Shown: one piece after another, positions 2,656-5,979 of the stretch | Numbering within the stretch: the first letter of the stretch is position 1 | Layout of the letters: every line of letters starts with the position of its first letter | Source of the DNA: Candidatus Fischerbacteria bacterium RBG_13_37_8 | GTDB taxonomy: Bacteria > Acidobacteriota > HRBIN11 > MFGW01 | DNA length: 5,979 bases | NCBI GenBank assembly: GCA_001780385.1 | Contig: MFGW01000148.1 | Location: 6,208-12,186, forward strand | Reading direction: 5' to 3' | Notes under the pieces: model-generated | The model's database searches: none | The model's input: only the letters and a program-made list of their open reading frames with translations | What the model was told of the DNA's origin: nothing | Made by a program: the position numbers and the translations under genes

Positions 2656-4671
2656 CTACGGGCATATTTTGGTGTTGGCAATTGATGGCGCTGTGATTGT
2701 AAAAGCTGGTGCTGATCCGCTTAAAGCTGGTGCTGAACCTGACAAAGCTGGTGCAGTGGCGCTGATAGACGGTGCTGTTATTGTTAATGCTGGAGTGGTA
2801 AAATAGCTGCATGCCGGGATATTTCCAGTTGAATCTACTTTCAATGCTAGAAGCGGAGATGAAAATGAAGCGGTTTGTCCGGTTGCTACCCAATCACCGC
2901 TGGAAGTTTCTTTTGTTGTAAGGATATAATCGGCTGCGGCTCCACCAAAGCTGTTTATTCTTTGTGCAACTCCGGAAGAAGAAAGCTTTATCATTAATCC
3001 TTCAGCGGGGCCTGAGCCAAACGAAGCTGCATAACCGCCGATAAGATACCCGCCATCAGCAGTTTGTGTTATTGAATATGCGCCATCGTCGCCAGCAGTG
3101 CCGAATGTTCTTCGCCATTGAATATTGCCTGAGGAATCCAGTTTCATAACAAGAGCATCGTTATTCCCAGCTCCGAATGATTTGGTGGTTCCTGCGATAA
3201 TATAAGCGCCGTCAGATGTGCTGAGCACTGAATATGCTTTATCTTCATTTGGTCCGCCGTAGGTTCTTCTCCAGAGTATATTCCCGGAGGCATTTAATTT
3301 CATGATTAAGGCATCGATTGTACCGGAGCCGAATGAATCGGTGTATCCTGCAACCAGATAGCCCCCGTCCGATGTTTGTACAATGGAAGTAGCTGTTTCT
3401 GAGTAGACTCCGCCGTAGGTTCTTCTCCAGAGTATATTCCCGGATGAATTAAGCTTTATTAACAGCATATCGGCGCTTCCAGCACTGTATGAACTTGTTT
3501 CTCCTGCTGCAATATAACCGCCATCAGAAGTTTGAATTATTGAATTAATAATGTCTGCATTTGTTCCGCCATATGTTCTTCGCCAGATAATATTGCCTAC
3601 TGAATTTAGTTTAAGGATAAGTGCATCGGTATTCCCTGCGCCGTAGGAATTTGTGTATCCGGCAATAACAGATCCACCATCAGCAGTTTTTACTATTGAA
3701 TTAGCTACATCGTCATTCGTGCCACCGTATGTTCGTCTTGAGACTATATTACCGATTGCATCGACTTGCAGGAATGCGACATCTTTCATTCCCGCCCCAA
3801 AAGATGAGGTATATCCGGCTATAATAGCTGCATTATTTGATAATAAATCCATAGAATTGCCTTTATCGAATCCAAGCACATTAGCGAAGCCATAGCCGCT
3901 TGTGCATCCTCCTCCGCTACAATCCAAAAATACTTGATAGCCCATAGTAGAATTGACACCATTTTCCGTGACAAGAACCGAGTAAGTGCCATTTTGATCG
4001 AGTGTAGCATATACTCCCGCAGTTGCGCAAGCACAATTAGTAGTGCCGACTTGAGTGCCATCCGGACGATATAATGCTACGCATGGACATCCAGGGCTAC
4101 TTAAAGAAGTAGCTTGAGCAGTGATAACGTAACCAATAGTTCCTCCAAAATAGAAGAGATCAGCATCTGATTCAGGATTAATTTCATCAGTGATTGTTTG
4201 ACCATATTGAATTAATGAAGCGCCGTCTGAAGGCGGCGATACACGCTGAAGTGAAATTTCGTAATTAAAACCTCCACCAAATATATGTTGTTGTGCTGTA
4301 ATTGTATAGGTTCCTGTTTGATCAAGATAAGACTCTATGTAAGCATTCCATGTACCGGAACAATGCTGTACAGTTGTTGAATCAGGCTTAAATAATTTAA
4401 TACATGGATAGGAACCTTGAGAATGCATATGCAGCCAGATTGTTTCCCCTGCTTGCCCATAAAATCTAAAAGTATCTATATCTCCATCATCTAATGAGCA
4501 TGTTACGAGATAGCCGTAGGTAATATTCATATTAGTTGGTTCTGCATCACACGGAATGCCTTCCTCTGTCGCCTCAGCCACAACTGCAGAAGCAATAAAA
4601 AGAGCAAGCACCATTAAACATACCGTTACATTACAACATTTTTTTATGTATGAGATCACCGCTAGTCTCAT
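2656..4671 (-). CDS. Secreted repeat protein: signal peptide + two PPC-like (pre-peptidase C-terminal-like) beta-sandwich domains + ~7-bladed SBBP-like beta-propeller + C-terminal AP-rich heptad tail
   Basis: This is the track ORF 2656..4677. The TTG at 4677 abuts the SD directly, with GGAGG being the complement of 4678..4682. The ATG at complement(4669..4671) sits 6 nt after it (GGAGGTTGAAAATG), so I call the start at 4671 (671 aa). A hydrophobic N-terminus VTVCLMVLALFIASAVVAEA indicates a signal peptide. Two segments follow the PPC pattern: DGDIDTFRFYGQAGETIWLHM...TGTYTITAQ...YEISLQRV and ESDADLFYFGGTIGYVITAQ...LYRPDGTQV...NGTYSVLV...YQVFLDC. Then come 52-aa repeats with consensus WRRTYGGxxxDxAxSIxQTSDGGYxxAGxTxSFGxGxxDALxxKLxxSGNIx. 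Stop is TAG at 2656..2658. Confidence 0.9.
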   Translation of the reverse strand: MRLAVISYIKKCCNVTVCLMVLALFIASAVVAEATEEGIPCDAEPTNMNITYGYLVTCSLDDGDIDTFRFYGQAGETIWLHMHSQGSYPCIKLFKPDSTTVQHCSGTWNAYIESYLDQTGTYTITAQQHIFGGGFNYEISLQRVSPPSDGASLIQYGQTITDEINPESDADLFYFGGTIGYVITAQATSLSSPGCPCVALYRPDGTQVGTTNCACATAGVYATLDQNGTYSVLVTENGVNSTMGYQVFLDCSGGGCTSGYGFANVLGFDKGNSMDLLSNNAAIIAGYTSSFGAGMKDVAFLQVDAIGNIVSRRTYGGTNDDVANSIVKTADGGSVIAGYTNSYGAGNTDALILKLNSVGNIIWRRTYGGTNADIINSIIQTSDGGYIAAGETSSYSAGSADMLLIKLNSSGNILWRRTYGGVYSETATSIVQTSDGGYLVAGYTDSFGSGTIDALIMKLNASGNILWRRTYGGPNEDKAYSVLSTSDGAYIIAGTTKSFGAGNNDALVMKLDSSGNIQWRRTFGTAGDDGAYSITQTADGGYLIGGYAASFGSGPAEGLMIKLSSSGVAQRINSFGGAAADYILTTKETSSGDWVATGQTASFSSPLLALKVDSTGNIPACSYFTTPALTITAPSISATAPALSGSAPALSGSAPAFTITAPSIANTKICP
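2681..2785 (-). repeat. Five consecutive 21-bp (heptad-coding) units at the 3' end of gene 2
   Basis: Plus-strand units are attgatggcgctgtgattgta (2681..2701), aaagctggtgctgatccgctt (2702..2722), aaagctggtgctgaacctgac (2723..2743), aaagctggtgcagtggcgctg (2744..2764) and atagacggtgctgttattgtt (2765..2785). They encode TITAPSI / SATAPAL / SGSAPAL / SGSAPAF / TITAPSI. Confidence 0.85.
2962..3741 (-). repeat. Five full 156-bp in-frame tandem repeats (propeller blades), with degenerate flanking copies reaching about 2815 and 3894
   Basis: Protein repeats occupy residues 313-364, 365-416, 417-468, 469-520 and 521-572 (track numbering), each 52 aa. A 36-nt stretch tccgccgtaggttcttctccagagtatattcccgga is identical at 3253..3288 and 3409..3444, an offset of exactly 156. 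Confidence 0.9.
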
Positions 4672-4699
4672 TTTCAACCTCCATAAAATACAAATTTTC

Positions 4700-4761
4700 T
4701 TTTCATATATTATAAGTGAACAATATTCACTTTTCGTATATATTCAGTGAACCACGTTCAC
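4700..4761. promoter_or_regulatory. Tandem 2 x 31-bp direct repeat, each unit ending in a GTGAA-N5-TTCAC palindrome (4716..4730 and 4747..4761), in the leader of gene 2
   Basis: Unit 1 is ttttcatatattataagtgaacaatattcac (4700..4730). Unit 2 is ttttcgtatatattcagtgaaccacgttcac (4731..4761). A single homologous unit, ttttcgtacatattcggtgaatcctgttcac, lies at 2255..2285 upstream of gene 1. The first palindrome extends to 7+7 (aagtgaa caata ttcactt, 4714..4732). Confidence 0.6.
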
Positions 4762-4785
4762 ATTTTCTCATCAATCAACTTTTAC

Positions 4786-4814
4786 ATTTTGGCATAGAAT
4801 TAATTCATTGTCAA
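4786..4814 (-). promoter_or_regulatory. Sigma-70-type promoter for gene 2: TTGACA - 17 nt - TGC-CAAAAT (extended -10)
   Basis: Complement of 4809..4814 is TTGACA. The spacer is 17 nt. Complement of 4786..4794 is TGCCAAAAT. It is homologous in position and sequence to 2310..2338. Confidence 0.55.
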
Positions 4815-5005
4815 GGAGCTGTTCGTAACCACAGGAATTACGGGAGAACATAAGATTGAATCGTGGGAGAAGTGGGTGGAATTGCAAAATGAAAGATAAC
4901 CTATAGTGCGTATTTTGAGGTTTTGCCATAACTATTTTTCACTATTTCCAGAAAGAGGGAGCAAAAGAGCTGGACTTCCGCGCCGAGAAATACTATTATA
5001 CAGAT

Positions 5006-5884
5006 ATGATGACAAGTTATTCAAAATGTGGCAAGGTATTTAGCCAGCAAGAGATAGAAGAGATCACAACAATAGTAAAGGAGCATTATCAGGAAGGCAG
5101 GTGTGAGATATCACGAAAAGTGTGTAAGGCATTATCGTGGTATTCAGAGAATGGGAAAATGAAAGACTGGATATGTCGTGAATTTTTGTTGAAGCTCCAG
5201 AAGGATAATCTTATCATTCTTCCACCGCCGAAGGCTTGTTCATTCACGAGATTCAGGAAGAAGAAGCTTGATAAGGTAGTATTTGATGAGCCGGACAGAG
5301 TCTTTGAAGGTAATCTTGGCGACTTTAGCAGGCCGGTATTTAAAAGAGTAGGTTCTTCATCTGAGAATACCCTATGGGAGTATTTGGTATGGAAATATCA
5401 TTATTTGGGCTATAAAGGAGTAATGGGGAGATTTTTAAAATATCTTATTTATATGGAAGACATTCCGGTCGGATGCATAGGATTTACCGGAGCAGCCTTA
5501 CGTGTCAGTGATAGAGACAGTTGGATAGGTTGGGACGATGAGGTAAGGAGAAAAAATCTGAAGCATGTAGCCAACAATTTTCGTTTTGTACTATTTCCGT
5601 GGGTAAGGGTAAAATATTTGGCAAGTCATATTCTGAGCAAAGCAATTCCCTTATTAGCAGAGGATTGGCAGAGGCAGTATAATGTAGCGATATATTTAGT
5701 GGAGACATTTATAGAACAGGAGCGATTTCAGGGGACATGTTATAAAGCAAGCAACTGGAAGCATGTAGGACAAAGTAGAGGATATGCGAAGACGAAGAAG
5801 GCATACCGCTGTCATGGGATAATTAAAGATGTCTATGTGTATCCAACCATGAGTAATTCATTAGAGTTATTACAATGTCTGTAA
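5006..5884 (+). CDS. DUF4338 domain protein (DruA-like family), 292 aa
   Basis: Track ORF. The C-terminal two-thirds carries the motif series I recognise from DUF4338 (PF14236) proteins: KYHYLGY, FLKYLIY, PVGCIGF, RDSWIGW, RRKNLKHVANNFRFVLFPWVRVKYLASHIL, AEDWQRQY and LVETFIEQERFQGTCYKASNWKHVGQSRG. The N-terminal ~70 aa (FSQQEIEEITTIVKEH...ISRKVCKALSW...ICREFLLKLQKDNLIILPPP) resembles the small helical domain typical of the family. An in-frame TGA at 4916..4918 with no ATG/GTG/TTG before 5006 fixes the start at 5006 or 5009. No good SD is present. Confidence 0.85.
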   Translation: MMTSYSKCGKVFSQQEIEEITTIVKEHYQEGRCEISRKVCKALSWYSENGKMKDWICREFLLKLQKDNLIILPPPKACSFTRFRKKKLDKVVFDEPDRVFEGNLGDFSRPVFKRVGSSSENTLWEYLVWKYHYLGYKGVMGRFLKYLIYMEDIPVGCIGFTGAALRVSDRDSWIGWDDEVRRKNLKHVANNFRFVLFPWVRVKYLASHILSKAIPLLAEDWQRQYNVAIYLVETFIEQERFQGTCYKASNWKHVGQSRGYAKTKKAYRCHGIIKDVYVYPTMSNSLELLQCL

Positions 5885-5979
5885 TAGAGTTAGCATTAGT
5901 AAAGAGAGAAGATACCGTTGGGGATTGTCCCCAAGAGGAATCCTGTCAAAGAGTAGCGATGCTTCTGAAGCAGAAGGAT
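5875..5979 (+). CDS. Possible 5' end of a downstream gene overlapping the DUF4338 stop (hypothetical protein, partial)
   Basis: The ATG at 5875..5877 overlaps the TAA at 5882..5884 (ATGTCTGTAA). 35 sense codons run to the window end: MSVIELALVKREDTVGDCPQEESCQRVAMLLKQKD. Three caveats apply. The SD is weak. A second plus frame (phase of 5877) is also open to the window end. A stable hairpin (5918..5934) lies inside the ORF. Coding status is therefore unresolved. Confidence 0.35.
   Translation, partial: MSVIELALVKREDTVGDCPQEESCQRVAMLLKQKD
5918..5934 (+). other. Perfect 7-bp stem / 3-nt loop hairpin TTGGGGA-TTG-TCCCCAA, 34 nt after the DUF4338 stop
   Basis: ttgggga (5918..5924) pairs with tccccaa (5928..5934). 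An alternative pairing is ggatt (5922..5926) with aatcc (5939..5943). No T-run follows, so it is not a canonical intrinsic terminator. Confidence 0.4.

Follow-up and report, generated by a model that had tools for sequence, protein, structure and literature searches.

The 5,979-nucleotide stretch of DNA analysed here (the window; forward-strand positions 6,208–12,186 of contig MFGW01000148.1 from Candidatus Fischerbacteria bacterium RBG_13_37_8) encodes a 292-residue DUF4338 protein on its forward strand, with an ATG start, at 5006–5884. Our analysis finds that the DUF4338 subfamily to which this protein belongs recurs within insertion sequence (IS) elements of many families, as a partner of their DDE transposases, and assigns a GNAT fold to the protein model, for which the Mom protein of phage Mu is the closest solved structure. 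Positions 4736–5979 are very probably the leftmost 1.24 kb of a ∼3.1-kb insertion sequence belonging to the IS66 family. We judge it likely that the structural identification holds together with a role for DUF4338 as an IS-encoded accessory protein, which would be produced together with the transposase and act with it.

The 292-residue protein matches Pfam family PF14236 (DruA/DUF4338) over residues 92–262 with an E value of 1.9e-40 and a score of 139.3 bits against a cut-off of 27, which is far above chance, and all 61 aligned relatives match the family as well. This profile match bears out an earlier note, made from the sequence alone, which had called the domain DUF4338. An NCBIfam scan of the protein returned no model for the family. 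Comparison with the 83%-identical copy at locus L100 gave a ratio of nonsynonymous to synonymous substitution rates (dN/dS) of 0.148 at dS 0.64, and purifying selection of this strength indicates that the gene is functional.

The outer boundary of the element is formed by a left terminal inverted repeat (IRL; GTATATATTCAGTGAACCACGTT) at 4736–4758 on the forward strand. Among metagenome relatives with 86–96% protein identity, blastn homology to the window starts exactly at 4736 for L101, L102, L104, L151 and two copies in L140, and the left flanks of all of these differ; a common start combined with all-different flanks places the element boundary at 4736. The IRL is identical at 21 of 23 positions to that of L005, in which the IRL (GTAAATATTCAGTGAACCCCGTT) and the right terminal inverted repeat (IRR; AACGGTCTTCACTGAGGATTTAC, forward strand) are 3,160 bp apart and a perfect 8-bp target duplication (CTGGGGGC) lies on both sides of the element. 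Loci L001–L004 hold copies of a single 3,112-bp element, which has equivalent repeats and whose flanking DNA differs from site to site. The IRL starts with GTAT in the sub-lineage of the window and with GTAA in L001 and L005, and the IRR of the former sub-lineage is supplied by L103. These comparisons establish the boundary and, in the relatives, the arrangement of inverted repeats and target duplications. For the copy in the window, the predicted right end, ∼3.0–3.2 kb from 4736, would be an IRR similar to GTAAATGCTCAGTAAACCCTGTTCA in reverse complement, with the duplication CACTTTTC just beyond it.

The TAA stop codon of the DUF4338 gene (5882–5884) is overlapped by an open reading frame (ORF) with its ATG at 5875 (ATGTCTGTAA), which, as the earlier note had seen, heads out of the window. 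Its first 35 codons (5875–5979, forward strand) are, judged by sequence proxy from L101, the start of an IS66-family DDE transposase gene. The fragment is identical at 33 of 35 residues to the N-terminus of an L101 ORF that runs on for 351 residues and matches PF03050 (DDE_Tnp_IS66) at E = 1e-17; L101 and the window are 93.6% identical in DNA over 4736–5979 and 96% identical in protein. With L100, the fragment shares 69% identity; the 93 L100 residues in turn match the coiled coil at the N-terminus of three IS66 transposases, those of L001, L005 and L019 (E values from 1e-13 to 1e-15), two of which, from L001 and L005, pass the NCBIfam IS66 model NF033517 with 256 and 252 bits (cut-off 180). 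The overlap of start and stop codons suggests translational coupling of DUF4338 and the transposase. The gene is thus not stand-alone, as had been proposed: it is overlap-coupled to its neighbour and belongs to a mobile element whose left end is at 4736. Nor does the window hold an undescribed module, since the partner is a known type of transposase, IS66, as the 96%-identical relative L101 reveals.

Canonical IS66 elements carry tnpA and tnpB upstream of tnpC and have terminal repeats of ∼20–30 bp starting with GTAA, whereas the ISBst12-like organization within the family is without tnpA and tnpB. The relatives of the window element agree with the latter organization in their PF03050/NF033517 DDE transposase, GTA(A/T) terminal repeats, 8-bp duplication and size of ∼3.1 kb. 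Unlike canonical IS66, the window and L001–L007 have no tnpA or tnpB between the IRL and the transposase; the upstream, overlap-coupled position is taken by DUF4338, a Mom-like GNAT, and the relatives possess in addition a small divergent gene. The layout proposed for the window copy would accordingly run from the IRL through a decayed remnant of this small gene and a leaderless-type promoter to DUF4338 and the overlap-coupled IS66 DDE transposase. In itself, the window element is an ordinary insertion sequence.

A promoter scan located a putative DUF4338 promoter at 4969–4999 on the forward strand, consisting of a GCTGGACT motif with a −35 box TGGACT (4971–4976), a 17-nt spacer and a −10 box TATTAT (4994–4999) that ends 6 nt before the ATG at 5006. 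The earlier note had found neither a convincing Shine–Dalgarno sequence nor a promoter; no Shine–Dalgarno sequence precedes the DUF4338 start in the window, so that the first half of this observation stands, while the promoter-like −35/−10 site at 4971–4999 contradicts the second. Upstream of DUF4338, six IS66-type relatives share a 15-nt motif, AAAAGCTGGACTTCC, without a single difference, and its CTGGACT core recurs 35–40 nt ahead of the start codon in 13 or more loci with transposases of different families, against a background of 6.6% for its occurrence anywhere in a random 170-nt segment. Across loci, the geometry comprises a 17-nt spacer, a TAnnnT box and 4–9 nt (mostly 6–8) to the ATG. 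Such geometry predicts a leaderless or near-leaderless DUF4338 mRNA, with the transcription start itself deduced from the boxes, and a promoter placed for a leaderless message would account for the missing Shine–Dalgarno sequence.

Relatives of the window element have a small gene in the interval from the IRL to DUF4338; it is encoded on the strand opposite to DUF4338 and reads away from it. It is intact in L100 (1–291, reverse strand, 97 residues), L001 (11–355, reverse strand, 114 residues) and L005 (922–1326, reverse strand, 134 residues), and the products from L001 and L005 are 51% identical (E = 5e-32). The window preserves the last ten codons only (LDNELILCQN; 4786–4815, reverse strand), of which eight of the ten C-terminal residues are identical to the products of the relatives, and ∼260 bp of the gene body is missing; the window copy is thus a deletion variant. 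The small product matched no significant Pfam family and gave only faint hints of an SH3-like or small β-barrel structure, and the gene was met only in the IS66-type relatives of the window.

The association of DUF4338 with transposases extends well beyond this element. We found 1,530 homologues of the window protein at E<=1e-5, nearly all of them on contigs of 1–5 kb and some on tens of contigs, an occurrence typical of the assembly of repeated mobile DNA. In every neighbourhood of the close homologues (67–68% identity), a PF03050 DDE_Tnp_IS66 protein of 567–589 residues lies directly downstream or overlaps slightly, and these transposases pass the NCBIfam IS66 equivalog model. An identical DUF4338/transposase pair (P0109) was found in at least five unrelated flanking contexts, which is evidence of mobility. 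Species-representative genomes gave at least 598 confirmed DUF4338 matches spread over many bacterial phyla, with several copies on some chromosomes; no copy closer than 64% to the window protein was found in the genome collection.

A census of genome loci retained 80, of which 65 had enough downstream sequence to be assessed. A transposase follows directly on the same strand in ∼50 of these 65, the partners being IS66 or IS66-like (24), IS1182-like (9), ISKra4-like (9), Tn5-like IS4 (3), ISAs1-like (3), IS4_1 (1) and IS21 (1). Transposases of the L008 type, considered as IS66-like, were ruled out as such because NCBIfam places them as IS1182-like, and the census figures follow NCBIfam. In all of the two-gene elements, DUF4338 and the transposase share one strand, with DUF4338 on the 5′ side. 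The terminal repeats of the ISKra4-like element enclose both genes, and its copies within one chromosome are 99.8% identical. In a crude neighbour-joining tree, the nearest DUF4338 neighbours share the same partner family in 48 of 56 cases, and each partner family is scattered across several DUF4338 clades, a scatter that suggests repeated exchange of the DUF4338 cassette. The earlier note's remark that DUF4338 occurs beside, or fused to, transposase-like genes is thus the rule for this subfamily, and the neighbourhoods of close homologues, whose examination that note had recommended, conserve a transposase downstream in every instance.

In L017 (Thiodictyon plasmid NZ_CP020372, 4342–10327), a DUF2235 gene is interrupted by ∼4.9 kb of inserted DNA containing DUF4338, an integrase with an IS91 transposase, and an IS4 transposase; this has the appearance of a DUF4338/IS4 element with an IS91 insertion of its own.

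Fusions provide a second line of evidence. Searching 1.84 billion cluster representatives with a profile retrieved 12,915 members at E<=1e-3. Among the top 150 of these 12,915, 21 exceed 700 residues, and Pfam and BLAST comparisons reveal the long proteins to be a full-length DUF4338 joined to a full-length transposase of the Tn5-like IS4, DDE_Tnp_1, ISAs1-like, IS630-type or IS66 kind. In the IS66 fusions P0143 (883 residues) and P0165 (810 residues), the transposase is N-terminal to a complete DUF4338, an order opposite to that of the two-gene elements and of the IS4-type fusions. The transposase parts of the fusions share just 35–44% mutual identity, which argues that the fusions are old and maintained rather than artefacts of assembly. 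Independent fusions that recur are a classic sign of joint action, here of DUF4338 and the transposase. A fusion annotated as an 'ISAs1 family transposase' on a Thiodictyon plasmid is decayed and truncated at both ends and was excluded from this evidence; the seemingly long overlaps of ORFs in L022, L023 and L027 were likewise set aside, being products of ORF calling from the first start codon and not fusions.

The AlphaFold model of the window protein, built with the alignment of 61 sequences, has a pLDDT of 91.9 and a pTM of 0.83 and is predicted to comprise a helical N-terminal domain (residues ∼1–75), a linker and a GNAT fold (∼95–283). Foldseek, recommended in the earlier note as a probe for an enzyme fold, indeed returned GNAT proteins; phage Mu Mom heads the PDB matches (8bv8_B; E = 3.2e-7, TM score of 0.62 normalized to the target), followed by generic GNATs, with RimI and Naa60 close behind, and phage Mom is also among the top matches in a viral structure library (E = 4.8e-8). 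The GNAT assignment agrees with an earlier one for DUF4338 by Aravind's group (PMC10853773). At the sequence level, the Pfam Mom model PF25680 is matched by 31 of the 61 relatives, with a best E value of 2.9e-8 and some matches above the gathering score. A search of PDB sequences with the family profile gave matches to IsdB as its sole result, which are spurious.

Mom attaches a glycine, taken from Gly-tRNA(Gly), to adenine N6 in double-stranded DNA; its residues R111, S124 and R151 are essential and H58, Y59, D149 and Y159 important, a helix–turn–helix (HTH)-like insertion (residues 175–209) is required for activity, and the modification shields phage DNA from restriction (PMC13219725). Across the 61 DUF4338 sequences, the invariant residues are H132, Y133, R193, S207, E233 and Y246, together with the motif GTCYKASNW. 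Alignment of the window protein with Mom by two or three methods tentatively equates H132-Y133 with H58-Y59, S207 with S124, E237 with D149, R240 with R151 and Y246 with Y159, and aligns GTCYKASNW with GVVYQASNF of Mom; the invariant R193 is a candidate counterpart of R111. On this mapping, the likeness would include the H-Y motif, a serine at the start of helix α3, an acidic/arginine pair and G-x-x-Y-[KQ]-A-S-N-[WF]; the canonical motif that binds the pyrophosphate of acetyl-coenzyme A (acetyl-CoA; Q/R-x-x-G-x-G/A) is absent between β4 and α3, as in Mom. The window protein differs from Mom in lacking the HTH-like insertion, in possessing another, helical, N-terminal domain and in being encoded by an insertion sequence rather than a phage. 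Several phage proteins of 500–560 residues described as 'homing endonuclease' or endonuclease-like (BFVD entries I7KLM9, A0A8S5PXW9 and G4KKB0, among others) contain a GNAT domain matching our model with E∼1e-6, which is a further link of this GNAT subgroup to DNA-acting enzymes.

A Mom-like active site, location in many IS families and repeated fusion to transposases together point to a nucleic-acid-directed role tied to transposition. That DUF4338 works with the transposase rather than travelling as cargo is the reading towards which the evidence leans, on account of its fixed position, the coupling, the shared promoter, purifying selection and the fusions. IS accessory ORFs are familiar from OrfA of IS3 and IS1 and from TnpA and TnpB of IS66, and a fused form is known as OrfAB. 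DUF4338 resembles these in being a small upstream gene, presumably co-expressed with the transposase, with occasional fused forms as in OrfAB; it differs in that the protein has an enzyme fold, that of GNAT, and not a plain HTH.

As to its substrate, the Mom-like site (HY, Arg, Ser and Y-x-A-S-N) would transfer an acyl or aminoacyl group, for which the likeliest acceptor would be DNA at or near the element ends or the target, in the manner of Mom acting on adenine N6 via Gly-tRNA; transposition might thereby be controlled or assisted. A nucleic-acid substrate is the most attractive option, because the active site is Mom-like, the glycine loop that canonically binds CoA is missing and endonuclease-like phage proteins contain this GNAT in fused form, and we put it forward tentatively. 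Dam methylation, itself a DNA mark, controls the transposition of IS10 and IS50; unlike that case, any mark here would come from an enzyme encoded by the element. The most far-reaching form of the proposal, namely that a Mom-like enzyme marks transposon ends or targets as a self-encoded epigenetic control comparable to that of IS10 and IS50 by Dam, was captured independently by at least six to eight IS families, often in fused form, and has DruA as a domesticated relative, is at present improbable speculation.

An alternative is that DUF4338 is a protein acetyltransferase that tunes transposition by way of the transposase or of a host nucleoid or replication factor, with no nucleic-acid substrate. 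Most GNATs acetylate proteins or small molecules, the closeness of RimI and Naa60 to Mom in the fold search agrees with such an activity, and fusion to the transposase would suit a substrate in cis. The missing acetyl-CoA pyrophosphate-binding motif, the conserved motifs shared with Mom and the half of the relatives that match the Mom model speak against it, so that we regard this alternative as rather unlikely. It is also unlikely that DUF4338 is cargo with no part in transposition, whether a Mom-like DNA-modifying (anti-restriction) gene or another gene of benefit to the host. The Mom-like fold and motifs, the presence of the same GNAT in phage proteins and the protection of phage DNA from restriction by Mom (PMC13219725) would all suit such a gene. 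Cargo, however, seldom keeps one position and orientation, 5′ of the transposase and overlap-coupled to it, across six or more unrelated IS families; nor would it be expected to be fused in frame to full-length transposases repeatedly and in both orders. The elements are minimal in size (2.5–3.2 kb).

GNAT toxins such as those of the AtaT/TacT type acetylate aminoacyl-tRNA, and an addiction module in which DUF4338 acted as such a toxin on charged tRNA, with the small divergent gene as its antitoxin, can be envisaged. The use of aminoacyl-tRNA by Mom (PMC13219725) and the small divergent gene of the close relatives are compatible with this arrangement; however, the small gene is lost from the window copy while DUF4338 remains intact and under selection, it is confined to the window's IS66-type relatives, and toxin–antitoxin systems do not characteristically have an additional N-terminal domain or fusions to transposases, all of which makes a toxin very unlikely.

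The last alternative, that the gene encodes the DruA protein of a type I Druantia system (Doron et al. 2018) or opens some other defence module with DruB–E or other partners just outside the window, borrows its appeal from the DruA name carried by PF14236 and from weak matches to PADLOC DruA models PDLC00001/2 (14.1 and 14.4 bits, E∼0.003), and is already close to refuted, since those matches align only ∼50 residues of profiles 407–675 residues long with a protein of 292, the gene is enclosed by IS boundaries, the overlapping ORF is an IS66 transposase in L101, and the neighbourhoods of close homologues all contain a transposase and none DruB–E. The domain family DUF4338 is correct, yet the protein is not a Druantia-type DruA. 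Of the 'defence or mobile module' envisaged in the earlier note, the mobile half has been substantiated by the IS boundary at 4736 and the defence half has fallen away, the Druantia check which that note had advised having yielded only these 14-bit matches; a false lead to a defence system is thereby removed for this window.

Certain observations weigh against the overall interpretation and must be set beside the evidence above. The right end of the element is not within the window, its IRR lying beyond 5979, and the transposase is represented there by only 35 codons. The window copy may also be a defective derivative, having lost the small divergent gene. The window protein itself gives no match to PF25680 at E<=0.01, and the profile alignment to the single Mom sequence is weak (E = 0.025), which makes the mapping of residues inferential. 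The HTH-like insertion of Mom is absent from the model, in which only short β-hairpins follow the Y-x-A-S-N motif, and a fold search with the N-terminal domain alone (pLDDT 85) gave no match at E<=0.001; there is a hint of a winged helix or HTH in this domain, the DNA binding of which is putative. Finally, no paper linking DUF4338, PF14236 or DruA to insertion sequences was found in the literature searched, and earlier curation of such elements in ISfinder is possible.

The partnership of DUF4338 with transposases across IS families seems to be undescribed in the literature searched, in which we also found no paper assigning an activity to DruA. So far, DUF4338 has served only as the signature of DruA; the present results make the function of both an IS accessory protein and DruA directly testable, and if the DNA-marking proposal were true DruA would gain its first testable biochemical function. 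The results also flag two-gene IS elements as a class, at present split by annotation pipelines into a 'DUF4338 protein' and a 'transposase'.

Further features of the element concern its left end and its decay. A hairpin (GTGAAC-CAC-GTTCAC) followed by a T-rich run at 4747–4761 on the forward strand, within or just after the IRL, matches the consensus of a terminator and is the only terminator-like site in 4600–5100. It is conserved in the IRLs of the closest relatives (GTGAACCCTGTTCAC) and may block read-through from outside, thereby insulating the element. The 31 nt immediately outside the IRL (4705–4735) resemble the inner IRL (4738–4767) at 24 matching positions with two gaps, a similarity score reached by ten of 2,000 shuffles; the outer copy might derive from an earlier end, now decayed, or from a preferred target, or the resemblance may be due to chance in AT-rich DNA. 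Decayed derivatives of the element occur in L103 (1–1517), in which the transposase is lost and the IRR follows the DUF4338 stop codon by 568 bp, and in L140 (3938–4277 and 7938–8086), in which an internal deletion is accompanied by two IRLs, 4 kb apart, with the same left flank. The 90% cluster of the window protein includes fragments of 86–146 residues.

Rfam and tRNA scans of the window returned no RNA features. Further to the left, the window has two large genes on the reverse strand, a DUF5122 β-propeller exoprotein gene (2656–4677, start codon at 4677) and an open frame of 760 codons (2–2281) that runs off the left edge and is described as upstream of the DUF5122 gene; a spacer of low GC content (28–36%, ∼2200–2650) separates the two. 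For the annotation of the window, the IS end at 4736 is a new boundary, which precedes the exoprotein start codon by 59 bp. A promoter-like site inside the element (4786–4814, reverse strand), with TTGACA, a 17-nt spacer, CAAAAT and an upstream TG, faces this gene, and the IS insertion may have replaced or supplied the exoprotein promoter.

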